DNA of 32,000 bases from Psychrobium sp. nBUS_13 (lineage in GTDB: Bacteria; Pseudomonadota; Gammaproteobacteria; Enterobacterales; Psychrobiaceae). The stretch spans positions 50,060 through 82,059 of the forward strand of contig NZ_CP179211.1 in NCBI RefSeq assembly GCF_051201665.1, written 5' to 3'. Shown in pieces: positions 655 through 32,000 of the stretch (position 1 is the stretch's first letter; each line of letters begins with the position of its first letter). Position numbers and translations under genes: made by a program. The notes below the pieces were generated by a model that worked only from the letters and a program-made list of their open reading frames with translations, ran no database searches and was not told where the DNA came from.

Positions 655-2277
655 ATGAAAAATGTACGTAACTCTAGAAAAGAACAAGAATTGTTAGCTA
701 AATTCTCTGTTCTAACCCGTCTTATGTCTAAACAATCTGACGTTAAGATAATTATCAGTGGGAACCAGCCTTACACGACAGGTGATTTAATTGTATTGCC
801 GTGTGGGGATTTTGAAGATGCAACATATTGTGAATTACTAGAAGGTGTAGTAGATCATGAAATAGGGCATATTGATGAATCTTGCTGGAATGTTCTAAAA
901 GACTTTGCTGGTTCCCCACTGTCTAAATCAATATTGAATATTATTGAAGATGTAAGAATGGAACGCTCACGTAGTCGTAAATATGCTGGCTCAAGAATCA
1001 ACTTTTATAAGATGATTAGTCACTTGTTTAAGCGTGGATGGTTTCAACCTGTAACGATAGAACATAGCGCTCCGCAATGCCTTACTTCTTATATTCTTTT
1101 TTCTGGTCGGTTCAAATATATGGATCAAGATCAGTTTGAAGAAAGAAGCATTGGTGCGAGAGAAGTGTTAGTTGAAAAGTTTGATGCAGATTTTGTGCAA
1201 GAACTTGATCTAATACTCACTCAAATACCCAAGTGTGAGGATACAAAAGGTGCTGGTGTAATAACGGAACAGATACTTCAATTACTTGATTTAGATGACC
1301 TTCAAGAAAGCGAATCTAAGAATAATACTCATAAACAAAGTACTAGCCCTAAAGGTGAAAATATTGAAACCAGTGTTCAAGAATGCCTTGGTGCAACTAA
1401 TGATGATGTATTAGAAGATCTGCATGAAGCTATAAAAACCGAACTTTCGCAAATCGTTAAGCAGTGTATCGCTGATGGAACTTTATCTTATAGTGAATGT
1501 GATAAGTACTCGATATCGAGACAAATCATTGAACAAGATATATCGTTCATCGACGTTGCTCAAGCAAAACGTAGAAGTGGCCAAGTTCGAAACACTTTAG
1601 CTAAACAATTACATTCACTTAATCGAAAATCTGTAACTCATTCGAGGCGTGGAAGTAACATTAATGCAGCTAAACTTGGTGGAATTAAAGCAGGGAATCT
1701 TTGTGTTTTTAAAAACGAAATGATAACTCGCTCGCCAAACACTGCTATTAGTATTCTTATAGATAGGTCTTATTCTATGGAAGAATTAATAACAGAAACC
1801 AATACAAGTTCGCTTGCATTGGCTTGTGCTTTTGAAAAACTTAAAGGGGTAAAATCAGAGGTTTTGTATTATCCATTTTATCAAAAGTATGAATGTGAGG
1901 AGCAAGGGACTATTTATACATTTAGTATCCATTGCGCTAAATCATTCGATGAAAAAACGTCGGCTGTGAAAAAGTACTTTAATGTCCAATCTGAAGGTGA
2001 CACACCAACAGGTCCAGCCATGCAAGAAGCATTACGCAATCTCGCCTTACGAAAAGAACCTAAAAAAATTCTTTTTGTTATTACAGATGGAGAAGCTAAT
2101 GATGAAGAGCACGTTAGAAAAGAAGTAGCAAATGCCCAGTTATTAGGTATCGATGTTGTCCCTATTGTTCTTAAAACTTGTGTTTCAGGTTTTGAGGAAG
2201 TAGGTACCACAAGAGTTGATGATATAAGTCAGCTCCATTCGGTTATCAAAGACGCTGTAAAATTAAAACTTCTTTAA
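655..2277 (+). CDS. HExxH metallopeptidase-like N-terminal region fused to a C-terminal von Willebrand factor A (VWA) domain; CobT-like / MoxR-partner type
   Basis: HEIGH at aa 68-72 (VVDHEIGHIDES). MIDAS-type DxSxS (LIDRSYSME), followed by GDTPTGPAM and ILFVITDGEAND, the usual VWA strand/loop pattern. Confidence 0.7.
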   Translation: MKNVRNSRKEQELLAKFSVLTRLMSKQSDVKIIISGNQPYTTGDLIVLPCGDFEDATYCELLEGVVDHEIGHIDESCWNVLKDFAGSPLSKSILNIIEDVRMERSRSRKYAGSRINFYKMISHLFKRGWFQPVTIEHSAPQCLTSYILFSGRFKYMDQDQFEERSIGAREVLVEKFDADFVQELDLILTQIPKCEDTKGAGVITEQILQLLDLDDLQESESKNNTHKQSTSPKGENIETSVQECLGATNDDVLEDLHEAIKTELSQIVKQCIADGTLSYSECDKYSISRQIIEQDISFIDVAQAKRRSGQVRNTLAKQLHSLNRKSVTHSRRGSNINAAKLGGIKAGNLCVFKNEMITRSPNTAISILIDRSYSMEELITETNTSSLALACAFEKLKGVKSEVLYYPFYQKYECEEQGTIYTFSIHCAKSFDEKTSAVKKYFNVQSEGDTPTGPAMQEALRNLALRKEPKKILFVITDGEANDEEHVRKEVANAQLLGIDVVPIVLKTCVSGFEEVGTTRVDDISQLHSVIKDAVKLKLL

Positions 2278-2296
2278 CTTAATTAATAACTACTAA

Positions 2297-2363
2297 CCCA
2301 ACCGGGAGAATATCGCTCCCATTGGGGCATATCTCTCCCAAATTTAACATCTCTGGAGGAGAT
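2297..2363 (+). promoter_or_regulatory. Structured leader IG1 (hairpin A:A', decoy B, anti-SD B', SD) upstream of ORF 2367
   Basis: A CCCAACCGGGAG 2297-2308 / A' CTCCCATTGGGG 2316-2327; B GGGAGAATAT 2304-2313; B' ATATCTCTCCC 2329-2339; SD GGAGGAGAT 2355-2363. Confidence 0.55.
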
Positions 2364-2366
2364 ACT

Positions 2367-2675
2367 ATGACAACCATAATAACTAAACCCATAACTTTCG
2401 ATAGTCCCAAGCTTAGAAAAATCACTTTGTCTGATTATTACAAAGCACTTCTAAGTGCTGATTGGTTCTATCACTATAGCGATTGTTATGAAACTCGTCG
2501 TAGGGCAGTGAAAGCGATAGCCTTACTTGAAAAAATAGGTACAAGTCATCCCATAGCAAATAAAATGTGGCGTGATTGTAAAGAATACGTAGTTAATCTA
2601 TGGTCTGATCCAGATACTAAAGTATTTGATTGTCCAAAGATTAATGCGGAATTTTCGTATCTAGCAATTCACTAA
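2367..2675 (+). CDS. Small hypothetical protein (102 aa)
   Basis: ATG at 2367 sits 4 nt after GGAGGAGATACT. The ORF-track start at 2322 is a TTG inside the leader hairpin and lacks an SD. No family recognised. Confidence 0.6.
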   Translation: MTTIITKPITFDSPKLRKITLSDYYKALLSADWFYHYSDCYETRRRAVKAIALLEKIGTSHPIANKMWRDCKEYVVNLWSDPDTKVFDCPKINAEFSYLAIH

Positions 2676-2676
2676 A

Positions 2677-2744
2677 CCCATAAGGGATACACTCCTTTAT
2701 GGGACTGTATCCCTCTGAAATTTAACATCTCTTGGAGGAGATAC
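2677..2744 (+). promoter_or_regulatory. Structured leader IG2
   Basis: A CCCATAAGG 2677-2685 / A' CCTTTATGGG 2694-2703; B AGGGATACA 2683-2691; B' TGTATCCCT 2706-2714 (9/9 complementary to B); SD GGAGGAGATAC 2734-2744. Confidence 0.6.
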
Positions 2745-2745
2745 T

Positions 2746-3078
2746 ATGTGTTCAGCCCTAACAAAACCAAAGCAATTTTCAGAACCAGTTCGTATTAAGC
2801 AACCTAGCATCTTTGATGTTCTCGATATAGTAAACCCACTTGATAAAGAATGGGATTACATGTGGAGTAAACTTGAAAGTCACCGTATTAATTTGGGATT
2901 AAGCGATAAGCTTAGCGCCTGTAATTTCGGTGAAGTTTGGCAGTATTTATATACTGAAGAACGTAGCTATTTTGTTTTTTGGAAACGTCAGTGTCATGTT
3001 TTTAGACATCGATTTCATCCAAATACGAATGGTCATGAAACATTGTACATACCGGCAAGTAAGAGCTATTTAGCTTAA
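2746..3078 (+). CDS. Small hypothetical protein (110 aa), paralogue of 3160-3477
   Basis: Strong SD. Shares NFGEVWQYLYTEE...FRHRFHP...IPASKSY with the next ORF. Confidence 0.65.
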   Translation: MCSALTKPKQFSEPVRIKQPSIFDVLDIVNPLDKEWDYMWSKLESHRINLGLSDKLSACNFGEVWQYLYTEERSYFVFWKRQCHVFRHRFHPNTNGHETLYIPASKSYLA

Positions 3079-3097
3079 ACCTGCATCTAACTACTAA

Positions 3098-3158
3098 CCC
3101 ATAAGGGGGAACACCCTTTACGGGCTGTATCCCTCTAAATTTTTCTCGGAGGAGATAC
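3098..3158 (+). promoter_or_regulatory. Structured leader IG3
   Basis: A CCCATAAGGG 3098-3107 / A' CCCTTTACGGG 3114-3124; B' TGTATCCCT 3126-3134; SD GGAGGAGATAC 3148-3158. B:B' pairing is weak here. Confidence 0.5.
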
Positions 3159-3159
3159 C

Positions 3160-3477
3160 ATGCAAACCCTAAACCCTGCAACACCTGAATATTTAAACTC
3201 TTTATTCACAATTTCTAGTGAGAGTAACGAGTGGAAATATTTGGAGAACGAACTTTCTAAAATTGAGCTAAACAAAGGTATTAACCAACCGCTTGTAGCG
3301 CGAAATTATGGAGAAGTTTGGCAGTATTTATATAGTGAAGAAGCAAGATTTACTGTCTTTGGTAAAAAATCGTTTAACCACATTTTTCGCCATAGAAACC
3401 ACCCTAAAACTCATAAGTTGGAATATATTGAAATGCCAGCAAGTGATAGTTTTTGCGTAACCAAATCTCAATCTTAA
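3160..3477 (+). CDS. Small hypothetical protein (105 aa), paralogue of 2746-3078
   Basis: NYGEVWQYLYSEE...FRHRNHP...MPASDSF; strong SD. Confidence 0.65.
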   Translation: MQTLNPATPEYLNSLFTISSESNEWKYLENELSKIELNKGINQPLVARNYGEVWQYLYSEEARFTVFGKKSFNHIFRHRNHPKTHKLEYIEMPASDSFCVTKSQS

Positions 3478-7080: not shown

Positions 7081-8124
7081 TTAGCCATTTCTATAGGTGT
7101 AGCTATAACCATTAATTGCAGGTGCACCGCCTAAATGTGCATATAGCACTTTTGAGCCTTCAGGGATCAATCCTTTCTTTACCAAGTCAATCATACCTTG
7201 CATCGATTTACCTTCATAAACAGGATCTGTGATCATCGCTTCTGTCTGTGCTGCTAGTCGAATAGCTTCGTTGGTTTCATTACTTGGAACGCCGTAAGCT
7301 GGATAAGCATAATCAGGATTGATGTTTACATCTTCCTCTGTGATTTCTTGACCTAGCTCAATTAATTCAGCGGCATTTTTTGCAATCTCTGTAACCTGAG
7401 CTCTCGTTTTCTCCACAGTACCTGAAGCATCAATACCAATGACTTTATCTGCTCTACCATCTGCTTTAAAGCCCACAATCATACCTGCTTGAGTTGAGCC
7501 AGTTACAACACATACCACGATATAATCAAACTTAAATCCTAGCTCTTTTTCTTGTTCTCGAACTTCTTCAGCAAAGGCAATGTAGCCTAATGCGCCATAT
7601 TTATGAACCGAACCGCCAGCAGGGATTCCATAAGGTTTTCCACCTTCGTCTTTAACTGCCTGTATTGCTTCTTCATAGCTGCTGCGTATCCCAATATCAA
7701 AGCCATCATCAACCATGCGACTATCGGCTCCCATTAATCTGGTCATTAAAATATTGCCAACACGATCATAAACAGCATCTTCATGAGGAACCCAGCTTTC
7801 TTGCACTAATCGACACTTCATACCTAATTTTGCTGCAGTTGCCGCTACCATTCTTGTATGATTAGATTGTACGCCACCAATAGATACAAGTGTGTCGGCA
7901 CCTGAAGCAATCGCATCAGGTACAATATATTCTAATTTCCTTAGTTTATTCCCGCCCATAGCAAGACCTGAATTACAGTCTTCACGCTTGGCATATATTT
8001 CAACTTTACCGCCAAGTGCTTCTGTTAATCTAGGTAAGTGCTCTATAGGTGTTTTACCAAAAGTTAGCGGATACCTTTCAAAGTTTTTCAATAAATTATG
8101 CTTTTTCAATTTTTTCTCCATCAC
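7081..8124 (-). CDS. acdS: 1-aminocyclopropane-1-carboxylate (ACC) deaminase, PLP-dependent
   Basis: Near full-length resemblance to Pseudomonas AcdS as I recall it: [82 protein letters not shown]. Confidence 0.85.
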
Positions 8125-8977: not shown

Positions 8978-10365
8978 TTACTTTTTTAAAAGCTTAGCGA
9001 GGTAACTATTGCGCTTGTGAGAGTTGCTACATGTTTCTGTAATGACCATTAAATCATCAGAGCTTCCCACTATATGGATTTCAGCCTCGGCTCTTGTGAT
9101 TGCCGTATATAACCACGATCTATCAACGATCTTGCCTTTCTGTAGAGCGATTATGACACTAGGAAATTGCGAACCTTGAGCTTTGTGTAGGGTTATTGCA
9201 TAACCCAACTCCATGCAATCGAGCACAGATTGCGTGACCTCAACCATATCACCAGTATCCAGCGTTACTTGACCATAGCCTTCACCCGAAGACTCAATAC
9301 TGGTTAGTGTGCCTAGAGAGCCGTTTTGAATGCCTTTGTCGTAGTGGTTTTGCGTGAATAGAATCGCATCATTCAATCTGAGGTTTTGAAAGAATCTCTC
9401 ACCGTGCATTTCAAACTCAAGCCTATCTCCATTAAGGTTGACAGCCTCTTGTGTTAGTTTATTAATTTCAGCAACAAGTGCTTTGGTTGGAGCCATAACA
9501 CGACTGTTCTCAGGCGATTGCTGATACAGTTCACGACACACTTGGGCGATATTTGTTTTTTTCGTTTCGTGGAAGTGAATAGCTCCCGTACTTAACTTCT
9601 CTGGCACGATTCCACTGTTGATAAGCTTTGAGTATTCGGGAATTCCCGTTGAGCCTTCCTGACGTTTAACGATATCTAGCATGGTATTGGTGATAGCTTT
9701 TGACTGAACGATATCAGCAAGTACCTTACCGCAACCTATGGGCGGCAACTGGTCTGGGTCGCCAGTAAATATAATGCGAACCGATGGATGAATATGGTTG
9801 ACCAAGCGATACATGGTTGGCAAGTCAATCATACTGGCTTCATCAATCACCAGAAGATGTTTTGGCTGCTCTGACGATGGCTCTATCGGCTCATCACGAA
9901 ACTGCTTGGCGATGGTTGAGGTGATAAAACCAATTGACTCATGCAAGCGCATAGCGGCTCTACCACTCAACGCTACAGCATGTATTTCAAATCCCATTTG
10001 ATGGTAGGCTCTAAGTGCGGTTCTAAGCACCGTCGTTTTACCAGTACCAGCCCCGCCCGTGATACAACTCACCGCGTTATCTAAACACGTTGTTACTGCT
10101 TCGATTTGTTTCTTGGTCAGCTCGTATGGCAATTCACCAACCGCAGAGCAATATGCAGAATTTGCATATTCGTCATAAAGGTTGTTTTGGCTAGCTAATG
10201 CTTTAAGCCGTTTAGCAACGACATTTTCCATCAATAACTGTGCGGTTGGATGGTAAGTGCCACTGTCAGGGTTTAGGATGTATTGTGCTTTTTCATGACC
10301 TGCCTTGAACGCTGCCGCAACTAGCTCTTTGTCCTTGAGTAGTTTGGTTAAATAGGGTCGCAAGG
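8978..10365 (-). pseudogene. RecD2-like SF1 helicase, C-terminal fragment (split by IS21-family element)
   Basis: Walker A GGAGTGKTT, motif II VIDEASMID, GDPDQLPPIG, AITLHKAQGSQFP, YTAITRA. The first ~20 codons of the ORF-track call (MIHRWVNFGSMLVGHFCTVGD) are read out of the IS end. Confidence 0.85.
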
Positions 10366-10453
10366 TGTCACCAACGGTGCAAAAATGACCCACTAACATC
10401 GATCCAAAATTGACCCACCGATGTATCATTTATTTATTTTTAGGTGATACGGT

Positions 10454-12249
<1,796 letters not shown>

Positions 12250-12318
12250 CTGGGTCAGTTTTCAATCGATGAATTACTGAAAAAGTGGGTCAATTTTAAA
12301 CCGTTGTTGACAGCAAGG

Positions 12319-13012
12319 CCGCTTGGTTTGTATACGTATGGCCTTTATCAATTTCTTTTCTGATAGCCGTTTCTAGTGCTGCGCTTAGCCTCTTGTGGTC
12401 ACAATCTGTGACCACAAGTTTGAAGTCGCAATTTGCGACCACAAGATCGACTTGTTCAAACGATATCCCGAAACCGATCAGCACATAGGGATTTTGCTTG
12501 ATCGCTTCAATCGACTCTTCACCGTGATGTTTCAGTAAGCGCTGCTGCACACCTGCTGGTATCTTATGTTCGGTCATCCAGTTGCAGTAGGCCAGATTTT
12601 TATATTTAGCATAGCCTTCAAACAACGCATTGATAGAATCTTCACTCAGGACGCTTCTAAGCTTTTCTCTCGATTCAGGAGTATCTTTTCTAACTATCGA
12701 GTGGAGATCTTTACCTAATAGCTCCCATAGCGCTCTAGCTTTACTTTCTCCAATACCTTTAAAGTCAGCTTCTCTTGCGATAAAGCGAATCAGTTGCTCG
12801 CCCGTTTCTGGAAGACTACATTCGATATGCTCCGGTGATTCATAGGTGTGCTGCTGCATCACGAAGTCACCCGTTTCCATTTCTTCTATTATGCGTGAGC
12901 CTTTAACCGACCAGTGTTGACCGAGTGCGGGTTGAACGGGGATTGAATCAGGGTGCGCTTTGATGGTGACGTAATACTTGCCGCTATTGGTTTTATAGGA
13001 GATTTAAATCAT
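12319..13012 (-). pseudogene. RecD2-like helicase, N-terminal fragment, with an in-frame TAA at codon 3
   Basis: Joining 12319 to 10365 restores ...HTYTNQAALRPYLTKLLKD... in frame. HhH-like FKGIGESKARALWELLG. The frame stays open upstream of the ORF-track start (12880) back to ATG ATT TAA (13012-13004), with no other canonical start between. Confidence 0.75.
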
Positions 13013-16668: not shown

Positions 16669-17646
16669 CTAGTCCTCAAATCGTGATGTGCCAGTACGTT
16701 TAGCATTAGCTTGCCTAGTATAATGTAAGGGCATAGTAGGGTTCTTCCAACCTCCAGATAAAGCTATCTCTGTCAAACTCACACCGTTTTCAGCTAGGCT
16801 TACCGCGCTACCAATTCTTAAGCTATGAGTATTAAACGCCAAACCAAGTAAACCTAACTCTCTGGCCATATTTTTTATAATTTTAGTAAAGCCAATATAT
16901 TTAAGTGGATCTCCCACTTTTCCACCTTTGTAGATACGGCGAATAAATAAACCCTCACTTATTCCTGTTTTATCCAAGTACAAACGAATGAGTGAAAGTG
17001 TTTTTGGTGAGAGGTTAGCGTATCTACCTTCTCCGTCTTGATCATTTTTGGCCCTGGCAATAAAAGCAGTTCCAATTTCAAAATCTATATCTTCGACCTG
17101 CAGCGCTAATAGTTCACTAGCTCGACATAACGTATACGTACCTAAGAACATGAGCATTGTATTTCTTATCTCAATGATAGATGATTCAGAGGTTACGGGC
17201 GGGAGCCGTTTAATATTAGAATGTCTAAGTGGTGCAAGTTGTTTAGAAGAGGGCAGTCGTATCAGTGAATTTCTAATATAATCCGTAATATTCTTACTAT
17301 CTTTCAATGGGTTCTTAATTTCAAGAAGACTGAACATTCCACTAATAGTAGATAATCTACGTTTTATTGTTGACTTACTGAAACCGTCACTAATCATTAT
17401 ATCGATGTAATCAAAGATAACTTCTTTAGCCGTTTTAAAGTCGCTACTAAATTCAATATACCCGTTAGAGCTACAAAAGCATTTATAATGTTTATAGTCT
17501 GATCGCTTTGCTTTTAAAGTATTTGGGTTTTCAGTTGGGAGAATTCTTTCTCTGTACTCATCAATGTTATCTTGCGCTTTATCTCGAACAAGATTATCAA
17601 TTTTGTTCGATTGGACACTAAGAATATCATTCAGGTTATTTTTCAC
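16669..17646 (-). CDS. Cre-like tyrosine recombinase
   Basis: CRASELLALQVEDIDF (Arg I). The C-terminus THSLRIGSAVSLAENGVSLTEIALSGGWKNPTMPLHYTR parallels Cre GHSARVGAARDMARAGVSIPEIMQAGGWTNVNIVMNYIR (from memory), including GGW in place of His II and the catalytic Tyr. GTG start with AAGGAG SD. Confidence 0.85.
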   Translation of the reverse strand: MKNNLNDILSVQSNKIDNLVRDKAQDNIDEYRERILPTENPNTLKAKRSDYKHYKCFCSSNGYIEFSSDFKTAKEVIFDYIDIMISDGFSKSTIKRRLSTISGMFSLLEIKNPLKDSKNITDYIRNSLIRLPSSKQLAPLRHSNIKRLPPVTSESSIIEIRNTMLMFLGTYTLCRASELLALQVEDIDFEIGTAFIARAKNDQDGEGRYANLSPKTLSLIRLYLDKTGISEGLFIRRIYKGGKVGDPLKYIGFTKIIKNMARELGLLGLAFNTHSLRIGSAVSLAENGVSLTEIALSGGWKNPTMPLHYTRQANAKRTGTSRFED

Positions 17647-17697
17647 TTTAGCTCCTTATCTAAACTTAATTAATATGGCCATTTGTATAATATTTAT

Positions 17698-17731
17698 TTT
17701 AGTATAGATAATTACAGTTATCTATACTAAA
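17698..17731. other. 34-bp lox-like core recombination site
   Basis: TTTAGTATAGATAATTACAGTTATCTATACTAAA has perfect 14-bp inverted arms around TTACAG, equally readable as 13-8-13 with the asymmetric spacer ATTACAGT. It lies 52 bp upstream of the recombinase start. An extra arm-like AGTTAGTATAAAC follows at 17731-17743. Confidence 0.75.
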
Positions 17732-17803
17732 GTTAGTATAAACAGCACCCCGATTTACATTAAAAACTCAAGGGTTTGATTAAGGATTAGTTTATTTATA
17801 AAA

Positions 17804-17818
17804 GTGTGACAACTAACG
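17804..17818 (+). repeat. Ter-like / operator-like motif, copy 1
   Basis: GTGTGACAACTAACG, 3 bp beyond the stop of the 226-aa ORF. Confidence 0.6.
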
Positions 17819-17821
17819 TTT

Positions 17822-18502
17822 TTATGTTCCACTTTTGAAGTCTGATACAACGTTAAAAATTTCGTCATGTTCAAGGCGTTCTTTAATTTTATCTGGCGAA
17901 TCACTTCTAGTACCTTTCTTAGAAATCCAGCCATTTATAAATGTGTGTTCAACAATTTTCTGTAGTAATTTTTGATCGCCGTAACTCATTCTAGATTGTA
18001 AAAGAGTCAATTGCCTTAAAATTGAAGAAGTAGGGCGATCGCCAAATTCAATAAATTCACATTCATTATTCGCATCAAAAAGAGCTTGTAACGTATCCTC
18101 CTCGCGTCTAACTGGAGGTGATGTTAACCACAAAATAGTGTCAGTGAAAGAGCTATCATATTCATTCAAACCCAAGTTTCTCTGAACTCTTTGTAGTTGT
18201 TCAAGTGCTGGCTTTTCAATATTTATGGTTGCTAAGCTCTTGTTTTTCTTGTACTTAAATGCTCTGAATGCACCATTCAAGCTTTTGTAACTTTCTGGTT
18301 TCATTGATGACTTAAGTTCTAAACTAGCTTCTTTATATGTTAGCTTTGTCAGATAATCAAAACGTAAGTCTTTATCTAAGAGGTGAGCAGGCGCCTTGTT
18401 ATCAACAAAATTTGAAGGGTTCATTCTCTTATCAAATGCAGGGATAGTTATATAATCCTGCCAGTGTTGCTCATTATCTTGTGTCATTTCGTTAGTTGTC
18501 AC
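17822..18502 (-). CDS. Hypothetical protein (226 aa)
   Basis: Long ORF with a plausible sigma70 promoter upstream. The GTG start lies inside motif copy 3; the alternative ATG is at 18487. No family recognised. Confidence 0.55.
   Translation of the reverse strand: MTTNEMTQDNEQHWQDYITIPAFDKRMNPSNFVDNKAPAHLLDKDLRFDYLTKLTYKEASLELKSSMKPESYKSLNGAFRAFKYKKNKSLATINIEKPALEQLQRVQRNLGLNEYDSSFTDTILWLTSPPVRREEDTLQALFDANNECEFIEFGDRPTSSILRQLTLLQSRMSYGDQKLLQKIVEHTFINGWISKKGTRSDSPDKIKERLEHDEIFNVVSDFKSGT
18490..18502 (-). repeat. Ter-like / operator-like motif, copy 3 (inverted)
   Basis: The + strand reads CGTTAGTTGTCAC, the reverse complement of GTGACAACTAACG. Confidence 0.6.
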
Positions 18503-18556: not shown

Positions 18557-18571
18557 GTGTGACAACTAACG
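18557..18571 (+). repeat. Ter-like / operator-like motif, copy 2
   Basis: GTGTGACAACTAACG, identical 15-mer to copy 1. Forms an inverted pair with copy 3 across a 56-bp spacer. Confidence 0.6.
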
Positions 18572-18600
18572 CTTTGTTGCTTTGTAGGTAAATAAAGATT

Positions 18601-18835: not shown

Positions 18836-19876
18836 TTAGTTATTAGCTCCTAAGATCTCCTTGATTGCATTTTCTACTTCATCAAGTTTATCAGTGCTTA
18901 AATTACAAAACTGGTAACTAGTTTCGTTGTCTTTTGTGATTATTTTATAGTTGCCACCTCCCTTTGCTGAATATGAAAAAGTACTTGCTTCAACTGTTGT
19001 CTTTTGACTATTTAACTCTTTCAATAGAAGTTCTAATACCTGTGAATTAAGCTTATACGGGTTTCTACTTCCTGCAAGCTGACATAAATCTTCAAAAGTA
19101 TGCTTCTGTACAATAGTGGATGCTTTTACTAGTTCTTTCGATGGCCGTTCTTTTGCTAAAGAGCGTAGCGTAGTGATCGTTGGTCGGCCTAGTTGTGTTA
19201 GATGTGGGAACAAATCGATTAAAAACTCTGGAATTTTACTAGCGCTGATGGCCATTGATACCATAGATGGAGTAATACCTTCGGCTTCAGCAATGGCTCT
19301 AGCGTTTTTGTACACTTTAGTTTCTATTTGATGTGTGTATTTTCTACCTTGTTCAATCAAGGAAAGAGGCTTGGATAAATTAGTAATATCTGCAAGATAC
19401 TTAGCATCTTCATCTTCAACTATTAACTTAGTTACATAGATTTTGAACGGAATACCTACTGATAAACAAGAAAACCTTCTTCTGCTGCCACTTAATACTG
19501 CAATTTTACCATTTTCGTTTAAGTACCCAATACCAGGTACTATTTGGCCACGTTTAACCATCGTTGCAGATAGATCTTCAACGCTTTCTTGAGTTACAAA
19601 TTTAGGGTCACGGCCATTCTGATCTGGTACAAATGTTTTGTCTTCAATCTCGCTGCTTTGGACAGTAATCAACTCAAAAACTGCTAGTTGATCATCACTT
19701 ATTTTAAGTTCTATTGTTGAGTTGCCTGACGTTAAAAGTGACGCGTTTTCTTTGGCATCTTTCAACGCTGAAGCGTTCATACCTGCAACTTTTACATTAT
19801 CACCAAGAACTGCACCCTTTACGCGCCGGCGACTTGTTTTTTTATCTTGAGTAGTCATATATTTTATATACCCCAT
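18836..19876 (-). CDS. parB: ParB-family partition protein
   Basis: ParB N-terminal domain signature IAVLSGSRRRFSCL (GxRRxxA-type). Overlaps the parA stop. The alternative start is at 19858. Confidence 0.8.
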   Translation of the reverse strand: MGYIKYMTTQDKKTSRRRVKGAVLGDNVKVAGMNASALKDAKENASLLTSGNSTIELKISDDQLAVFELITVQSSEIEDKTFVPDQNGRDPKFVTQESVEDLSATMVKRGQIVPGIGYLNENGKIAVLSGSRRRFSCLSVGIPFKIYVTKLIVEDEDAKYLADITNLSKPLSLIEQGRKYTHQIETKVYKNARAIAEAEGITPSMVSMAISASKIPEFLIDLFPHLTQLGRPTITTLRSLAKERPSKELVKASTIVQKHTFEDLCQLAGSRNPYKLNSQVLELLLKELNSQKTTVEASTFSYSAKGGGNYKIITKDNETSYQFCNLSTDKLDEVENAIKEILGANN

Positions 19877-21066
19877 AGCTCACAACATTCGAGCTCTATT
19901 TCATTAATTATCAGCCGATATTCATTTTGAGCTAATTTTAAAGAGGCTTTACTTGCCGGATATTCACTTGCGCTATAATCGTAAACTGTACAATAGTCTT
20001 CTGCACAATTTGTTACAGCATCAGATTCAATGAATTCATGTGTGTATATATGTTGAAAATCTCTCGATTTGTTACATGCCATTCTGATATTTTGAGCTAT
20101 TCGGACCTGAGATACACTTGAACGTCGAATACCTGACAGCATCACTTTTACATTGTCGTATCCTTTATGTCCCATTCCCATTAGTAAACTATACATATCA
20201 GCTAAGAATTTAACGTACTTTTCAGATGAGTCTTGGTCGTTCTCTGAGGGGCGTATAGGCACTATTAATGATGTTGCTACATAATGACCTGCTAACGTCA
20301 TTGCTGAAAAATACGGTGACGTATCAATAAATAGGATGTCAAAATCATCTTTTACTGAGTCGATAATTTTCTCCATGGCAGTATACGCATTATATGATTC
20401 ACCAGCCTCTTCAGCTTCATTTTCACGCATTTTTACATAGAACTCATGCTGTCTATCTTCGGGTCTTGAACACATAACCCTAAAGTTCGGAATGTTAGTC
20501 TCATAGAAAGCTTCTTTACATAAATCTGAAAATGTTTCGCCTTCAGATAATTCAAAGTTTTCCATCAGTAAATCACCGATTGATAGGTCATCATCTGAAA
20601 AATTAGGCTTCAACATGGCTGTAGACGTACCTTGAGGATCTAAATCTAGCACGCCGACTCTATAACCTTTTGGTATCTCGATGGCCAAACCTGAAGCTAA
20701 AGTTACAGTAATAGTTGTTTTACCGGCTCCGCCCTTTAAATTACTGACGCAGTAAATTGGTAATTTAGATTGATTTTGAAAAAGTTCTTCTTGCGAACAT
20801 GCTTTTCTAAGCTTTAAAACATCATCTATGTCGATTTGCCAAGATTTATCAAATCTGGTGAAGTCGATATCTAACTCTTTGCAAAGAGCAGTGATTTTGC
20901 GTGCATGAGCACCAGTTGCCGCAACTGCTTCTGTTTGATTGTAAGTGCGTTTAAGTTTTCCGTTAACGTTCTCAGTAGAAAGGACACTTTGCTTATTATC
21001 GAGATTCAGTGCAGCTAGATAGCTAGAAAGGTTAGTAATACTTTCAAGTGTTGCTACGGGTGTCAT
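19864..21066 (-). CDS. parA: ParA partition ATPase, type Ia (long N-terminal extension)
   Basis: Deviant Walker A NLKGGAGKTT and DLDPQG. About 400 aa, like P1 ParA / F SopA. The ATG at 21066 has AAGGA upstream; the ORF-track TTG at 21111 is less likely. Confidence 0.85.
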   Translation of the reverse strand: MTPVATLESITNLSSYLAALNLDNKQSVLSTENVNGKLKRTYNQTEAVAATGAHARKITALCKELDIDFTRFDKSWQIDIDDVLKLRKACSQEELFQNQSKLPIYCVSNLKGGAGKTTITVTLASGLAIEIPKGYRVGVLDLDPQGTSTAMLKPNFSDDDLSIGDLLMENFELSEGETFSDLCKEAFYETNIPNFRVMCSRPEDRQHEFYVKMRENEAEEAGESYNAYTAMEKIIDSVKDDFDILFIDTSPYFSAMTLAGHYVATSLIVPIRPSENDQDSSEKYVKFLADMYSLLMGMGHKGYDNVKVMLSGIRRSSVSQVRIAQNIRMACNKSRDFQHIYTHEFIESDAVTNCAEDYCTVYDYSASEYPASKASLKLAQNEYRLIINEIELECCELWGI

Positions 21067-21173
21067 GGATATTCCTTTAATTAAAGTTATCTTATCCATC
21101 AATGGTAACAAATAGTTTCAATGAAAAAAAGAAGATTAGAGGATTTATATTGAAATGGGTATTTGTAATGAGG

Positions 21174-21206
21174 TTTATTGGCTTCTCTTTAAGAGAAGCC
21201 AATAAA
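21174..21206. promoter_or_regulatory. Perfect 33-bp palindrome upstream of parA
   Basis: TTTATTGGCTTCTCTT-T-AAGAGAAGCCAATAAA (16-bp arms). No U-tract follows on either strand. Confidence 0.5.
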
Positions 21207-22339: not shown

Positions 22340-22610
22340 GTTAAACCTTTAAAAGTAGTGAGTGTTTAATGAGATTAGCAAATAATAATAATGGCGCAAC
22401 TTGGTAATTATCAATATAAAAGTATACCATCATGCAAAATTGAGAATAATACAACACTACCCACACTCAACATTCAAACACGAAAAAATTGCCCCTCGAT
22501 TCAAAAAAGAATGCGAAATGCAAAAAAAAAGAAATTTAAGTAGATAAAATGACAATAAAGTTTGCGCCATCCAATATAATTACAGCATGATGGTATACTT
22601 AGGAGTTAAC

Positions 22611-23516
22611 ATGACAAATATTGTAAACATGGTTCAGTCATTATTTTATGAACTTAAACGTGAAACAAATGACCTCAAGCAGTACTTAAGGACTAACAAA
22701 CCACAACAAATAATATGTTTTGAATTACCGGCCATTTCAGCTGAAACCAAAGAATTGCCGAGTTTTGAAGAACGCACTATTACTGTCAAGCAAATTACTG
22801 ATCATGAGCAAGCTCTTGCTTTGGCTAATCGGTATTTATCAAATTATTTTATAGAAGATAATGCATCTAAAAAATTTGCTTCAAGATGTCCGGGCATCAT
22901 TCAGATGAAATCTGAGCATAAAGATTATGTCGTTTTACGTATTACTCGTATTAATAGAATTAAAGAAGAAATTAAAGCAGCTATAACAGCAAAAGATGAA
23001 GAAGGGATCGATTTATTTACCAGGAGTGAACGTTTCAATATTTTACGTGAAGCTATACCAGGTGTCGTCACTTTAAAGTTATATCGAAAAATACAGTGTA
23101 TCGCCCAATCATTAGCATCTATTTCTTTTACGTGGGCGAATAAACAATCAATTACCAAAATTGATCTTGAATCTTTAAAAAAGCTACTAGAGTTAAATAA
23201 AAAGAACATTCCAAGTGAATCTCAACAGAATGAATGGGATGACTTCATTAATCTTGAAATAAAAGCTGTTACTGATTCAAAAGCTAAAATGTTTAAATTT
23301 AGAAGACCTGTTCCTGCAGCTCCAATGGTTAATTTAAGGTTTACTGATAAAACCAAAGCGATGAGACATGCACATTTACCAATATTTATATTTGGTAATG
23401 AAGTGATTAAGGTTTCGCCTTTAAAAAGTTACTGGCCAGATACAGGGCATTACAGACAACGCATAGAAATCGAGAAATACCTAATAAACAGACTTAAAAT
23501 AATCCCTACTGACTAA
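22611..23516 (+). CDS. tus: Tus-like replication terminus-binding protein homologue (301 aa)
   Basis: Blocks collinear with E. coli Tus (309 aa, from memory): RLPGVLCYQV/RCPGIIQMKS; HLPGLITLNAYR...RFGWANKHIIKNL/AIPGVVTLKLYR...SFTWANKQSITKI; KIKRPVKVQPIARVWY/KFRRPVPAAPMVNLRF; HACPTPLIAL/HAHLPIFIFG; IIPRLHLYVAD/LINRLKIIPTD. The ATG at 22611 has AGGAG 6 nt upstream. Confidence 0.75.
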   Translation: MTNIVNMVQSLFYELKRETNDLKQYLRTNKPQQIICFELPAISAETKELPSFEERTITVKQITDHEQALALANRYLSNYFIEDNASKKFASRCPGIIQMKSEHKDYVVLRITRINRIKEEIKAAITAKDEEGIDLFTRSERFNILREAIPGVVTLKLYRKIQCIAQSLASISFTWANKQSITKIDLESLKKLLELNKKNIPSESQQNEWDDFINLEIKAVTDSKAKMFKFRRPVPAAPMVNLRFTDKTKAMRHAHLPIFIFGNEVIKVSPLKSYWPDTGHYRQRIEIEKYLINRLKIIPTD

Positions 23517-27337: not shown

Positions 27338-27655
27338 ATGAGAAAGCATAGAAAAAAGCACGAATGGGCAGCAGTCTTTGAAGAGCAACAACGCAGTGGC
27401 TTAAGCATCATTGAGTTTTGTAAGCTGCATGCCATATCAACAACCAACTTTTATAAGGTGCGAGCGAACATTCGAGGTAAAACATCCGGTAAGCCAGCCT
27501 TTATCAAAGCAACGATTACTAAAGATAATGACAATCCTAACGTCACATCAACAAGCCAAGTGTTCAGGCTCACAACAAAACACGCACAAATCATATTGCC
27601 AAACCACTGCTCAAGCCAGTTTATCGTTGATATTCTCAAAGGACTGCAAGCATGA
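27338..27655 (+). CDS. tnpA: IS66-family accessory protein TnpA (Orf1)
   Basis: Position, size, and the HTH-like SGLSIIEFCKLHAISTTNFYKV. ATGA overlap with tnpB. Confidence 0.8.
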   Translation: MRKHRKKHEWAAVFEEQQRSGLSIIEFCKLHAISTTNFYKVRANIRGKTSGKPAFIKATITKDNDNPNVTSTSQVFRLTTKHAQIILPNHCSSQFIVDILKGLQA

Positions 27656-27999
27656 AGATGTTTGTCGAACCAGACCAAATCTATTTACATCGCGATTTTG
27701 TTGATTTTAGAAAGTCTATTAACGGGCTAACTGAACTTGTTGAAAACTCACTTGAGCGCGATGCTTATACCGGTGAACTATTTATTTTTTGCAATAAATC
27801 CAAGGATAAAATCAAGCTGCTTTACTGGGATAAAACGGGGTTTGCCCTGTGGTATAAACGACTAGATAAGCACAAGTTTAAATGGCCCAGTAAAATCAAC
27901 GAGCAATCACTAGCGCTAGATGTGCAACAGCTTGACTGGTTACTCTCTGGTTTTGATGTGCTTGGCCATGAGACACTTAACTACCAGTCATTATTATGA
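27652..27999 (+). CDS. tnpB: IS66-family TnpB (Orf2)
   Basis: IYLHRDFVDFRKSINGLTELV...LFIFCNKSKDKIKLLYWDKTGFALWYKRL, the conserved IS66 Orf2 pattern. Confidence 0.85.
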   Translation: MKMFVEPDQIYLHRDFVDFRKSINGLTELVENSLERDAYTGELFIFCNKSKDKIKLLYWDKTGFALWYKRLDKHKFKWPSKINEQSLALDVQQLDWLLSGFDVLGHETLNYQSLL

Positions 28000-28101
28000 T
28001 CTTATTCTCGTCAAGGAACATTGACGAAACTCTCTAGATTACCTCGCATTAATTTCCCCTCAATAGCGCATAGTCGTTGGCTTTTTGTTAAGCTTCTGAG
28101 T

Positions 28102-29652
28102 ATGAAAATAGACATTAACTCACTCCCTGATGACCCCGCACAACTTAAGCAAATGCTGCTTGAGTTGCAACGGAGTGTGAGTGAAAAAGATAAAATCATC
28201 AGCGAGCAACTATCACAAATAAACCAGTTTATTGAAGATTACGAACTGGCAAAACGTAAGGCTTATGGTAAACGTTCTGAAAAGCTCGCCGGCAACGATG
28301 AAGTCTTTAACGAGGCCGAAGAAACGCTCGATGATGAAGATAAAGCGCTTATTGCTCAGAGTGATAATCAACAAGCTGCTCGCGATAAGCAATCACCCAA
28401 GCGCAAACCGTTGCCCAAGGATCTTGACAGAGAGATCGTCGTCATTGACGTACCAGATGCTGAAAAAATCTGTGACTGTTGCCAAGGTGAACTTCACCAA
28501 ATAGGTGAAGCGAGCAGTGAAAAGCTAGAGTTTATCCCCGCTCAAATCAAAGTGATTGAAACAAGGCGGCCTAAATATAGCTGCCGTCACTGCGAGAAAG
28601 AAGAAACAAGCAACACTATCAAGGTCGCTCCAGTTCCAGCGTCCCCCATCCCTAAAGGTATTGCCACCGCAAGCTTATTAAGTCAGATAATCAGTGGGAA
28701 GTATCAATATGGATTACCGCTCTATCGACAAGAATCTATGTTTAGGGAGCTGGGGATAGAGTTAAGCCGTAAAAGCATGTCGCAATGGGTGATACGTTGT
28801 AGCGAGCTTCTTGAGCCAATCACTCAAGCATTAAGGCAGCACTTACTGAAGCAGCGTGTGATTAATGCCGACGAAACGACGTTAAATGTTACCAACGAGG
28901 AAAAATCGACTTGTTACATGTGGGTCTATTGCGCGGGCAAAGATAAACTGAGCAACAGCGTTTTGCCAAACATAGTGCTCTATGATTATCAAAATAATCG
29001 GCGTGGTGAATGTGTGGTTAATTACCTTGATGGCTATACAGGATACCTCCAAGTAGATGGCTATCAGGCGTACGGTCAAACGAAAGCTACCTTGGCAGGA
29101 TGTATGGCGCACGCTCGGCGAAAATTTACAGATGCTAAAGCGGTCCAGCCCAAAAATAAGACGGGCAAGTCTGATGTGGTGCTGACATTAATCCAAACGC
29201 TTTATGGCATAGAGTCTGGCTTAGTAGGAAAATCATTTGAGGAGATAAAAGCCAGACGGCAGGAAAAATCCAAACCTATCCTAGATAAAATTCAGGCATG
29301 GGCACTAGCGCACCGAGACAAGGTGCCGGAGAAAACGAAGTTGGGGATAGCCATAAAATACTGGCTCAACCAATGGCCAAAACTCATCACTTATCTCGAT
29401 GATGGGCAAATAAGCATCGACAACAATCGTGCAGAGCGAGCTGTAAAGCCGTTTGTCATTGGTCGCAAGAACTGGTTGTTCTCAAACACGGCGCGGGGTG
29501 CAAAAGCCAGCGCGATATTGTATAGCCTCATTGAAACGGCGAAGGCCAACGGCAAGTTCGCCGATAGCTACCTGCAATACTGCCTAAACGAGTTGGCAAA
29601 GAATCCAGAAGACGTTGAATATCTGCTACCTTGGAATGTTAAGCTTGTCTAG
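28102..29652 (+). CDS. tnpC: IS66-family DDE transposase TnpC
   Basis: Cys pairs CDCC...CRHC, LPLYRQ, ADETT, VDGYQAY, DNNRAERA.KPFVIGRKNWLF. The ATG at 28102 is preferred to the ORF-track TTG at 28021. Confidence 0.9.
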   Translation: MKIDINSLPDDPAQLKQMLLELQRSVSEKDKIISEQLSQINQFIEDYELAKRKAYGKRSEKLAGNDEVFNEAEETLDDEDKALIAQSDNQQAARDKQSPKRKPLPKDLDREIVVIDVPDAEKICDCCQGELHQIGEASSEKLEFIPAQIKVIETRRPKYSCRHCEKEETSNTIKVAPVPASPIPKGIATASLLSQIISGKYQYGLPLYRQESMFRELGIELSRKSMSQWVIRCSELLEPITQALRQHLLKQRVINADETTLNVTNEEKSTCYMWVYCAGKDKLSNSVLPNIVLYDYQNNRRGECVVNYLDGYTGYLQVDGYQAYGQTKATLAGCMAHARRKFTDAKAVQPKNKTGKSDVVLTLIQTLYGIESGLVGKSFEEIKARRQEKSKPILDKIQAWALAHRDKVPEKTKLGIAIKYWLNQWPKLITYLDDGQISIDNNRAERAVKPFVIGRKNWLFSNTARGAKASAILYSLIETAKANGKFADSYLQYCLNELAKNPEDVEYLLPWNVKLV

Positions 29653-29673
29653 GTGCCTTGCCTAGACGCTTAC

Positions 29674-29947
29674 GATTTTTCTTCACTAATTGAGGTTCAA
29701 ATGTTCCATTGCGGTCTCGCGGAGTGTCGAGTTCAAAATTACCAGACGGGTGTTTGATGTTTTTACTTGTTCTGCCATTCTTTCTATTAGATTGATTATC
29801 GTTGGCTAAGTGGTGCTCTAGTTCGGCATTAAGAGCCGCTTCGGTTAATTGCTTAATCAAAGGGCCTAAGATGCCATCTTTACCAGTGAGGCTTTTACCA
29901 GCTTGTAAATCTGTTAATGCTTGCTCAAAATCAAAAGAGTTAGTCAT
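29674..29947 (-). pseudogene. IS256-family transposase, N-terminal fragment
   Basis: FDFEQALTDLQAGKSLTGKDGILGPLIKQLTEAALNAELEHHL...LDTPRDRNGTFEPQLVKKN. Excising the IS66 plus one TSD restores ...QLVKKNQTSLSDEID... in frame. Confidence 0.8.
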
Positions 29948-30015
29948 GTGTCATTCCTGTTTTATTATATTCTACTGAAATGACACAGAATTATGAACAC
30001 TCCCTCTAAAAAATC

Positions 30016-30470
30016 TTAACTCATAGAGTCAGACAACTTACTTAAATTGACCATTACTTCCAATGAATATAACCTTGATATTATTTCTTTATCATAGTCA
30101 TTTAATGCTTCAGTAATTAGTTCGTCTAAATTGTTTAGAGAGTCTAAAGTATCAACTACTGAAACTTTTTGAGCATCAGTTAATTTATTTTTTCCGGTTT
30201 TGATCGATGGAATCATTTTATCATTTATATTTTCTTTTAATGATACGAATACACCCCTTACTGCTCTATACGCTAATATATCTGCAATTGATTGAATAGA
30301 TGAGCCTTTGTACATCTCTAATGCTTTATGAGGTTCCATGCCTAGTGCATTAAAAGCTGCTGTTTCATCTGATGAAAAGCCAACAGTAGCATTATACCGG
30401 CTTTTAGTAAGAGCAGAAGCTATTAAGGTTGCATATTGTGTTTGTAAAGAGCTCCAACTATTAATTGTAG
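30016..30470 (-). pseudogene. Unknown gene truncated at its 5' end by the second IS66-family element
   Basis: The ORF-track N-terminus MSLPRRLP is translated from the IS66 terminal repeat (30471-30492). The remaining ~150 aa are unrecognised. Confidence 0.55.
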
Positions 30471-32000
30471 GTAAGCGTCTAGGCAACGACACCTAGCTAT
30501 TTAAAATTCCAAGGCATTAGTGATTCAAGAGCATCAGGATTTTCAGCAATCTGCTCTAAACAGTGGGATATATAGTCATGTACGACAAGGCCGTTAGCCT
30601 TAGCGGTTTCCACCAAACTATAGAGAATGGCGCTGGCTTTCGCACCTCTTGGGGTATGGGAAAACAACCAAGCCTTGCGTCCAATCACAAACGGTTTTAT
30701 GGCTCGTTCTGCACGATTGTTATCAATACTTAACTTACCATCATCAAGGTAGCGTTTGAATTTTTCATACTGATTCAGTGCATAGGTAATGGCTTTTGAC
30801 AGCGGCCTTTGCGGAGACAGTTTTTCTTTGTGCTCTACAAGCCAGTGATAAAACTCTTCGACAATGGGTTTGGCTTGTTGTTGGCGAGCCTTGTATTTTT
30901 CATCGTCCTTCATCTCTTTAATCGATTGCTCTATACCATAGAGTTTACCAATGAAGTTAAGCGCTACGTCGGCTTTACCGGTTGTCTTGTTGTTGCCTTT
31001 TGCTTCAATGAACTTGCGACGGATATGAGCAAGACAAGCCACTAAAGTGGCGCTGGTTTTTTCATAACCTTTGTAGCCATCAACGTGCATGTAACCTGAG
31101 TAATCATCGAGAAAATCAATGGCGCATTGTCCTGCACGACTGTTGTGATAATCAAATAAGACGATGTTTGTCTTACCTTCAGGTTTGTCATCACCGCAAC
31201 AATATAACCACATATAGCTGGTCGCTTTGTTAGCTTTGATAACCTTGAGCGGTGTTTCATCCGCATGAATCGCAGGTTGTTGGAGTAACTGTTCTTTGAG
31301 TGTGTCATACAACGGTTCAAGCAGTTCGCTACAACGAACCATCCAACTTGACATGGTTTTGCGATTAATCGTTATGCCGATATCGCCAAACCACGTTTCT
31401 TGTCGATACAACGGTAAGCCAAACTGATACTTACAGGTAATGATTTGACTGAGTAAACTTGGCGTAGCAATACTTTTAGGGATAGGAGTTGACGGCATTG
31501 GCGCTATCTGGATATCGCTTTGTATGCCCTCTTTTTCACACGCTCTGCATGCGTACTTTGGACGAACGGTTTTAATAACCTTGATATGAGCAGGTACAAA
31601 TTCGAGCGTTTCACTTTCTGCTTCACCCATTTTATGTAACGCACTTTGACAGTGACTACAGACTTTAGCGTCGTCGTGTAAATCAACCACCACCTCTTTG
31701 CGAGGTAAGGCCTCGGGTAATGGTGTGCGCTTGGGTTTTGCTTTTTCGGTGTGTGGTTCATCATTGGCGATGAGGAGCGCTTTTTCTGTGTCAGACAGCG
31801 TTTCTATGTCATCCAATTGAGCTTCTACTTCGTTAAATACTTCACCAGCCCCTGGCATTTTCTCTGACTTTTTGCCGTATTCTTTGGCAATCTTGGCGTT
31901 ATACGCATCAAGTAGTTCTTGATAGAGAGACTTTTGCTGCGCTAACTCTTTGTTTTGCTTTTGCACAACGTACTGCAACTCAAGCAGCATGCTCTTGAGT
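30471..32000 (-). mobile_element. Second IS66-family element (inverted, diverged), partial at the window edge
   Basis: The terminus GTAAGCGTCTAGGCAACGACACCTAG at 30471 nearly matches the IRR of the first copy. tnpC reads leftward. Confidence 0.85.
30497..32000 (-). CDS. tnpC: IS66-family transposase TnpC, N-terminus outside the window
   Basis: Collinear with the first TnpC at roughly 60% identity by eye (LPLYRQ, ADETP, VDGYKGY, DNNRAERAIKPFVIGRKAWLF). The frame remains open beyond the ATG at 31990. Confidence 0.9.
   Translation of the reverse strand, partial: LKSMLLELQYVVQKQNKELAQQKSLYQELLDAYNAKIAKEYGKKSEKMPGAGEVFNEVEAQLDDIETLSDTEKALLIANDEPHTEKAKPKRTPLPEALPRKEVVVDLHDDAKVCSHCQSALHKMGEAESETLEFVPAHIKVIKTVRPKYACRACEKEGIQSDIQIAPMPSTPIPKSIATPSLLSQIITCKYQFGLPLYRQETWFGDIGITINRKTMSSWMVRCSELLEPLYDTLKEQLLQQPAIHADETPLKVIKANKATSYMWLYCCGDDKPEGKTNIVLFDYHNSRAGQCAIDFLDDYSGYMHVDGYKGYEKTSATLVACLAHIRRKFIEAKGNNKTTGKADVALNFIGKLYGIEQSIKEMKDDEKYKARQQQAKPIVEEFYHWLVEHKEKLSPQRPLSKAITYALNQYEKFKRYLDDGKLSIDNNRAERAIKPFVIGRKAWLFSHTPRGAKASAILYSLVETAKANGLVVHDYISHCLEQIAENPDALESLMPWNFK

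Follow-up and report, generated by a model that had tools for sequence, protein, structure and literature searches.

A candidate Cre/loxP-type recombination module beside the partition genes of a Psychrobium plasmid

A 32,000-nucleotide stretch of a plasmid of Psychrobium sp. nBUS_13 (assembly GCF_051201665.1, contig NZ_CP179211.1, forward-strand positions 50,060 to 82,059; hereafter the window) encodes a 325-amino-acid tyrosine recombinase with a 34-bp palindrome just upstream of its gene, and a preliminary description of this DNA, made without database searches, proposed the two as a candidate new Cre/lox-like pair. The locus therefore raises the question of whether the palindrome is the target site of the neighbouring recombinase and, if so, what such a pair would do for the plasmid. 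Comparison of the site, the protein and their surroundings with related loci points to a self-contained recombination module of the Cre/loxP type whose native role is most likely multimer resolution, a reading to which a probability of roughly 70% is assigned.

Regarding the site, the 34-mer TTTAGTATAGATAATTACAGTTATCTATACTAAA, composed of TTTAGTATAGATA-ATTACAGT-TATCTATACTAAA, was located exactly at positions 17698-17731 and its 13-bp arms are fully complementary, confirming the perfect-armed site of the preliminary description. It has the make-up of a Cre-type target, namely 34 bp near the gene with 13-bp inverted repeats and an asymmetric 8-bp spacer, and the loxP-like 13-8-13 geometry originally proposed holds; however, complementarity of the arms runs one base further inward, to GATAA-N6-TTATC, and 14-6-14 is the better description of the geometry. 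By analogy with Cre, from which cleavage positions can be inferred, the inner 6 bp of the spacer would be the region of strand exchange. The site does lie close upstream of the recombinase gene as described, at a distance from its end to the GTG start codon of 51 bp and not 52 bp. Perfect inverted repeats of at least 13 bp separated by a gap of 4-10 bp were present in 2 of 300 simulations under a first-order Markov model of the window, and the real window has two such repeats, the 34-mer and a palindrome at 21174-21206. The latter (TTTATTGGCTTCTC-TTTAA-GAGAAGCCAATAAA, in a 14-5-14 arrangement) precedes the parA start by 63 bp and may act as a par operator or terminate the preceding gene. The lox-type site occurs once in the window and once in each of the homologous contigs, which are 7-13 kb long.

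Sites at the same position were taken from the contigs encoding the closest homologues of the recombinase and are listed here in gene orientation, with the protein identity to the window recombinase and the distance upstream of the start codon in brackets: TTTAGTATAGATA ACTGTAAT TATCTATACTAAA in the window (100%; 51 bp), ATTAGTATAGATA ACTGTTAT TATCTATACTAAT in L002 (69%; 46 bp), TTTAGTATAGATA ACACTAAT TATCTATACTAAA in L006 (62%; 39 bp), TTAGGTATAGATA ACCCTTAT TATCTATACTTAA in L010 (61%; about 106 bp) and TTTAGTATAGATA AGTGTTAT TATCAATACTAAA in L003-L005 (58%; 31 bp). When the intergenic regions of the five loci are aligned, the site stands out as the sole conserved island: the pairwise identity of each arm is 91%, whereas the central 6 bp reach 62% and the flanks 40-43%. 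The spacer differs in each of the five loci, with the first A and the last AT invariant, and the arm of L003 carries an uncompensated change, indicating that the arm sequence is kept beyond mere pairing. Constant arms around a changing, always asymmetric centre are the pattern expected of a tyrosine-recombinase core site, and the comparison supports this identification; the arms would be read by the protein, and the crossover region would need to match only the partner site. A more distant homologue (L011, 49%) has a palindrome at the same position with different arms, ATTACTTCATATA ACTGCAAT TATATGAAGTAAC, and therefore site and protein change together. In a Paraglaciecola plasmid (L072, 31%) the sequence ACTAGTATAGATA ATTAGGAT TATCTTTATTAAT ends 6 bp before the start codon. 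The L011 locus is of interest in its own right, since the arms of its site (909-942, upstream of the gene at 978-2018 encoding protein P0006) match loxP at 11 of 13 positions (ATTACTTCATATA vs ATAACTTCGTATA) and the helix-J segment of its protein, TYRALLDIF, resembles STRALEGIF of Cre, including the residue aligned with Cre R259, with 26% identity to Cre for the protein as a whole.

Regarding the recombinase, Pfam detected the generic Phage_integrase domain only, and the protein was nowhere near any cut-off of the curated NCBIfam models, including those for Xer. Among PDB sequences the best match was Cre, aligned end to end (residues 22-316 with 21-331, E 3e-10). The catalytic residues R175, E178, K200, H274, R277, W300 and Y309 align with R173, E176, K201, H289, R292, W315 and Y324 of Cre, and these columns are invariant in all 10 sequences aligned (the window protein, seven homologues, SCre and Cre). 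The C-terminal motif HS.R.G...GGW...Y falls on Cre H289, R292, W315 and Y324, and the catalytic set is equivalent to that of Cre, with Trp instead of His at the position of Cre 315. An AlphaFold2 model based on 12 sequences had a mean pLDDT of 85, and in a Foldseek comparison of this model with the PDB, ranks 1-33 were all Cre or its evolved variant Tre (TM 0.69-0.80; rmsd 3.0-3.2 Å), followed by XerA, the Tn1549 integrase, the integron integrase and XerH at TM 0.44-0.58. The predicted structure is the two-domain clamp fold, in a protein of the 300-400 amino acid class and without an extra arm-binding domain. Assignment to the Cre type is thus supported by catalytic residues, sequence and predicted fold, and the Cre-like C-terminus with its Trp, already pointed out in the preliminary description, is borne out by the aligned residues and by a fold match of TM 0.80. 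Since the protein shares 22% identity with Cre, 26% with Dre and, in the case of SCre, 21% over the global alignment and 26% within the C-terminal 163 residues, it is, by sequence, not one of the characterised enzymes. The identical NCBI protein is annotated as 'tyrosine-type recombinase/integrase (plasmid)' of Psychrobium sp. nBUS_13, the best match among 72,556 plasmid records has about 31-33% identity and belongs to Alteromonadales plasmids, and a search of 1.84 billion cluster representatives yielded only about five clusters with E below 1e-60 and 25 with E below 1e-30, so that the close clade is small.

The function proposed for the module follows the precedent of Cre/loxP, for which multimer resolution is the established role in the P1 plasmid prophage. 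As in Cre, one recombinase monomer would bind to each half of the 34-bp site (the half-sites, TTTAGTATAGATAA, being identical), two occupied sites would synapse as a tetramer, and Y309 would cleave at the edges of the central 6 bp, with strand exchange via a Holliday junction. As the spacer is asymmetric, the site has a direction; copies of the site on a plasmid dimer would be direct repeats, recombination between them would return monomers, and multimer resolution is for this reason the most likely native role, one that would aid the neighbouring ParAB partition system. The window, taken from a plasmid of about 100 kb, has one directional site, next to parAB and tus, and multimer resolution is consistent with a large plasmid having a single directional site close to its partition genes. 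In addition, the site lies 51 bp from the start codon, and 6-46 bp in several relatives, which would place bound recombinase on the promoter or immediately downstream of it, and repression of the recombinase gene by its own product is therefore likely; the promoter-like match within the site, on which this proposal draws, is weak, and self-repression is put forward as no more than probable.

Regarding known systems, one of the closest is SCre/SloxM1 of Shewanella sp. ANA-3 plasmid 1. The preliminary description had tentatively suggested that the centre of the Psychrobium site resembles the SloxM1 core, and this proved correct: the published and experimentally validated SloxM1 reads CTCGTGTCCGATA ACTGTAAT TATCGGACACGAG (PMC3082901), and the central 16 bp, GATA-ACTGTAAT-TATC, are identical in both, in the same orientation to the gene. 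Both systems come from marine Alteromonadales, in each case from a large plasmid, that of ANA-3 being typed MOBH and the window sharing an IncA/C-type backbone gene. In contrast, the SloxP arms (CTCGTGTCCGATA) are not those of the Psychrobium site, matching it at 5 of 13 positions (the inner GATA and one other), the protein is not a close relative of SCre (ABK50591), and SloxP is found 3.5 kb from SCre with two mismatches in its arms. Because of the 5 of 13 arm matches, and because the divergence between the two proteins is about as great as that of each from Cre, the Psychrobium pair is not the SCre system. The spacers of the clade are all of the form A-N5-AT, and several start with ACTG; the spacer shared with SloxM1 therefore probably reflects common descent of the site and not coincidence. 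The Shewanella sp. ANA-3 plasmid (L001) also has, at 7454-7487, a second lox-like palindrome, GTAACCTTCGATA ATGAATGT TATCGTGGGTTAT, with arms matching at 10 of 13 positions; it precedes the SCre start codon by about 80 bp and is distinct from the published SloxP.

The Cre/loxP system of phage P1 resembles the Psychrobium module in the catalytic set, including the Trp at W315, in a similar C-terminal tail (..TG....F.ED), in the predicted two-domain fold, in a 34-bp 13-8-13 site with an asymmetric spacer upstream of the gene, and in a replicon with parAB. It differs in the low protein identity, in its arms, which are unrelated (TTTAGTATAGATA vs loxP ATAACTTCGTATA), in the specificity residues (Cre T258, R259 and E262 correspond to Y250, I251 and T254 in the Psychrobium protein), in the distance between site and start codon (51 bp vs about 430 bp in P1) and in the host replicon, which in Psychrobium is a plasmid without phage similarity. 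Dre of phage D6 is likewise a Cre-type enzyme with a palindromic site and has the highest identity among the characterised recombinases found (26% over 88% of the length), whereas Dre is phage-borne; its site, rox, has a 14-4-14 arrangement with arms unrelated to the Psychrobium site. In XerS/difSL and XerH/difH a recombinase gene has a single target site directly upstream and the role is dimer resolution. The Psychrobium module shares this arrangement of gene and site; it differs from the Xer systems in its NCBIfam Xer scores of 22-67 bits against cut-offs of 220-371 (XerA 67 vs 220; XerD 53 vs 330), in a fold similarity to XerH and XerA (TM 0.44-0.52) far below that to Cre, and in being plasmid-borne and not chromosomal.

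Computational mining has yielded the Cre-type pairs YR1-YR12 and about 500 predictions, made by searching for a palindrome with 13-15 bp arms and an 8-bp spacer within 1 kb of a Cre-like gene of 300-400 amino acids with conserved catalytic residues (Jelicic et al., 2023; PMC10250229). The same discovery logic applies to the Psychrobium pair, and the G-A-T-A motif beside the spacer reported for active pairs is also present in its site, whereas active sites have a conserved T at position 7 (PMC10250229) and the middle arm position is A in the Psychrobium site. As for the novelty first claimed, the site and the protein are not essentially identical to any of the published Cre-family pairs compared, with protein identities of 22-26% and the 5 of 13 SloxM1 arm positions given above, and the pair matches no characterised one; because so many pairs of this kind have already been predicted (PMC10250229), it is less exceptional than had been held.

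Several observations weigh against a Cre/loxP-type module for multimer resolution. Adjacency of site and gene is not universal, since in two more distant homologues (L007, 46%; L009, 37%) sites of the form GATA-A.....AT-TATC lie 0.7 kb and 4.7 kb upstream and in two metagenome homologues (L074 and L075, 42-44%) no palindrome was found directly upstream; sigma-70-like matches are no more numerous in the region than in shuffled sequence, and the promoter match inside the site is only suggestive; and 8 of 17 predicted pairs were active in the earlier survey (PMC10250229). Furthermore, the window covers 32 kb of a plasmid contig of 100,125 bp, and a second copy of the site, should one lie in the approximately 68 kb outside it, would imply inversion or excision. 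That the site is one end of such an invertible or excisable segment is nevertheless improbable, given its single copy both in the window and in each homologous contig and its position beside parAB, which is typical of resolution systems. An integration and excision function, by which the plasmid would dock through recombination of its site with an identical or similar one on the chromosome or another replicon, is unlikely, if somewhat less so. Cre-type enzymes catalyse integration as well as excision, and the same half-site core is found beside tyrosine recombinases in chromosomes of other genera; however, the full arms TTTAGTATAGATA were found in no site among 185,579 species genomes scanned, the nearest matches in that scan have other outer bases and other spacers, and the predicted fold has no arm-binding N-terminal domain.

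The exact 13-8-13 arrangement with an asymmetric centre that varies by lineage is as expected for a crossover region and unlike an operator, the central 16 bp are those of a proven recombination site (SloxM1), and no other candidate site is present within the window. It is therefore rather unlikely that the palindrome serves solely as an operator for the recombinase or another regulator and that the true crossover site is elsewhere, as might be suggested by the overlap with promoter-like sequence, by the remote sites of the 46% and 37% homologues and by the published SloxP, which is 3.5 kb from SCre while another palindrome is directly upstream of that gene. The core ATAA-N6-TTAT is common to the Psychrobium site and to dif-type sites, such as dif of E. 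coli, and the site could accordingly be a substrate of the host XerC/XerD, like cer or dif, with the adjacent recombinase being unrelated; this is very unlikely, as XerC and XerD arms differ whereas those of the site are perfectly symmetric, a different lineage of the adjacent recombinase comes with different arms, and the site stays beside this recombinase gene family across loci. Least probable of all, the palindrome could be AT-rich sequence that pairs by chance, or it could act in RNA as a hairpin or terminator of the upstream gene. If transcribed, the site would fold at -15.1 kcal/mol (z = -4.7); yet palindromes of such quality are rare by chance, and it is the arm sequence that is conserved, the uncompensated change in L003 included, rather than pairing. 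The terminator scan found none, with no T-run after the site, an Rfam search gave no match, and the RNA-element reading was dropped because both scans were negative. Compared with these alternatives, the Cre/loxP-type module with multimer resolution as its role remains the preferred reading.

Regarding further elements near the site, the preliminary description included a third arm abutting it. This element exists, with 3 of 13 positions mismatched, and a further arm-like element with two mismatches is located beside the ribosome-binding site; arm matches of third-arm quality number 32 in the window against 25 expected by chance from shuffled sequence, neither element is conserved in the homologous loci, and identity in the upstream flank is 40%. 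Both were rejected as additional arms, their match quality being at chance level and conservation in homologues being absent. The coordinates of the features are collected in Table 1.

Table 1. Features of the candidate recombination module and its surroundings in the window.
Feature	Position	Strand	Remarks
Cre-type tyrosine recombinase gene	16669-17646	-	325 amino acids, GTG start; Pfam Phage_integrase E 3e-21
Ribosome-binding site AAGGAG	17652-17657	-	5 nt before GTG; read from sequence
Further arm-like element TTAAGTTTAGATA	17657-17669	-	2 mismatches; abuts ribosome-binding site (5 bp from AAGGAG)
Weak match to a sigma-70 promoter (TAGATA, 17 nt, TAAAAT)	17696-17724	-	inside site; 9 of 12 consensus positions
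Lox-type core site	17698-17731	.	gene orientation: TTTAGTATAGATA ACTGTAAT TATCTATACTAAA
Gene-proximal 13-bp arm (putative recombinase half-site) TTTAGTATAGATA	17698-17710	+	exact match
8-bp asymmetric spacer ATTACAGT	17711-17718	+	gene orientation ACTGTAAT
Gene-distal 13-bp arm	17719-17731	-	perfect inverted copy of proximal arm
'Third arm' GTTAGTATAAACA	17732-17744	+	3 of 13 mismatches; probably not functional
Conserved motif ACGTTAGTTGTCAC	17806-17819	-	74 bp from site; one of three copies bracketing ORF226
ORF226, conserved protein	17822-18502	-	between parB and site; start probably ATG at 18487
parA, parB partition genes	18836-21111	-	parA 19864-21111, parB 18836-19876; Pfam and NCBIfam matches

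Regarding the plasmid context, the order on the minus strand is parA, parB, ORF226, the site and the recombinase, followed downstream by three small ORFs, a DUF3799 nuclease and RecT. With tus on the far side of parA, this order sets the module within the maintenance region of the plasmid. The order parA, parB, ORF, recombinase, DUF3799 and RecT is also found in L002 and partly in L006. ORF226 had no match in Pfam, NCBIfam or PHROGs and is 65% and 54% identical to the syntenic ORFs in L002 and L006, respectively. Three copies of the motif (A/T/G)CGTTAGTTGTCAC surround it, at 17806-17819 (minus strand), 18489-18502 (plus strand) and 18559-18572 (minus strand), two of which flank a promoter-like TTGATA...TACAAT. 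L002 has the same three-copy arrangement and L006 a copy downstream of its ORF, the downstream copies in both being 73-75 bp from the lox-type site; the motif may be an operator or a parS-like element. Beyond parA are genes for an LPP20 lipoprotein and for a homologue of the replication-terminus protein Tus (22587-23516; Pfam Ter E 4e-45) and, beside the latter, two probable replication genes, a 364-amino-acid ORF and an AAA_25 helicase-like ORF. Elsewhere in the window, a RecD-like helicase gene (8978-12880) with about 84% identity to an IncA/C-type gene on many conjugative plasmids is split by an IS21-family element (istA 10454-11479, istB 11476-12249), and an insertion-sequence cluster at 27338-31990 comprises two IS66-family transposases, an IS66 Orf2 and a Mutator-family transposase fragment. 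In a DNA-level search of the region against plasmids in distant mode nothing was found for the module, only the IncA/C-type helicase gene elsewhere being matched; the window had no DNA-level similarity to phages, and a profile search of viral contigs gave no relatives of the module. A literature search on the site sequences returned no paper, and Psychrobium combined with plasmid gave only microbiome papers that do not concern this plasmid.

The scan for the half-site in other lineages, made with the pattern AGTATNGATAA-N6-TTATCNATACT on one genome per species and on a viral collection, gave 54 genome loci and four viral-collection loci, 58 in total. At 36 of these the site is upstream of a tyrosine-recombinase ORF whose start is no more than 400 bp away, and at eight more the site is too near the end of the locus to assess. 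The recombinases at the scan loci have His and not Trp at the position of Cre W315 and are 23-27% identical to the window protein. About 30 of the loci are Aeromonas chromosomes, covering nearly every Aeromonas species, in which AAGTATCGATAA-TGAATA-TTATCGATACTT, with an invariant spacer, lies approximately 25-90 bp upstream of a conserved 342-amino-acid tyrosine recombinase whose chromosomal position, near tatD/ycfH, holB and tmk, is fixed (for example L014, site 3226-3253 and gene 2137-3165; the same arrangement is present in L017, L019, L021, L026, L030, L036, L041, L045, L052, L054, L064 and others). A literature search on the Aeromonas site found no paper containing the sequence. The form AGTAT(T/C)GATAA-N6-TTATC(A/G)ATACT immediately precedes tyrosine-recombinase genes in two more phyla, in loci of Verrucomicrobia (L016, L027, L039, L044, L048 and L061) and of Psychrobacillus/Ornithinibacillus (L024, L029 and L062, the site in L062 being 19 bp from the start). 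The recombinases of these two groups have about 27% identity to the window protein. The AGTAT-N-GATAA half-site thus occurs both with the Trp-type window enzyme and its 31%-identical Alteromonadales relatives and with His-type recombinases. It is a speculative idea, and one that is doubtful at present, that this half-site, arranged as a palindrome around a 6-bp centre directly upstream of the gene, is a recognition code of ancient origin, reused widely by tyrosine-recombinase modules that are self-contained and repress themselves; if true, the Psychrobium pair would be one example of a class of single-site recombination modules that spans phyla and has gone unrecognised.

Regarding the significance of these findings, the Psychrobium pair belongs to a well-known kind of system and is not conceptually new; comparative support for it, drawn from the related loci, appears better than for most such predictions. 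If active, it would extend the set of Cre-type recombinases by an enzyme that shares 22-26% identity with Cre, Dre and SCre, and as its arms differ from those of every published lox-type site checked, it is a candidate orthogonal tool for genome engineering. Because the 8-bp spacer is common to SloxM1 and the Psychrobium site, the two would allow a clean test of whether the arms alone set specificity. The natural series of five spacer variants on identical arms, together with a sister lineage in which the arms resemble loxP and helix J resembles that of Cre, could inform how the specificities of recombinase and site co-evolve. For the plasmids themselves, the analysis suggests a probable multimer-resolution function for a conserved block of a little-studied marine plasmid group.

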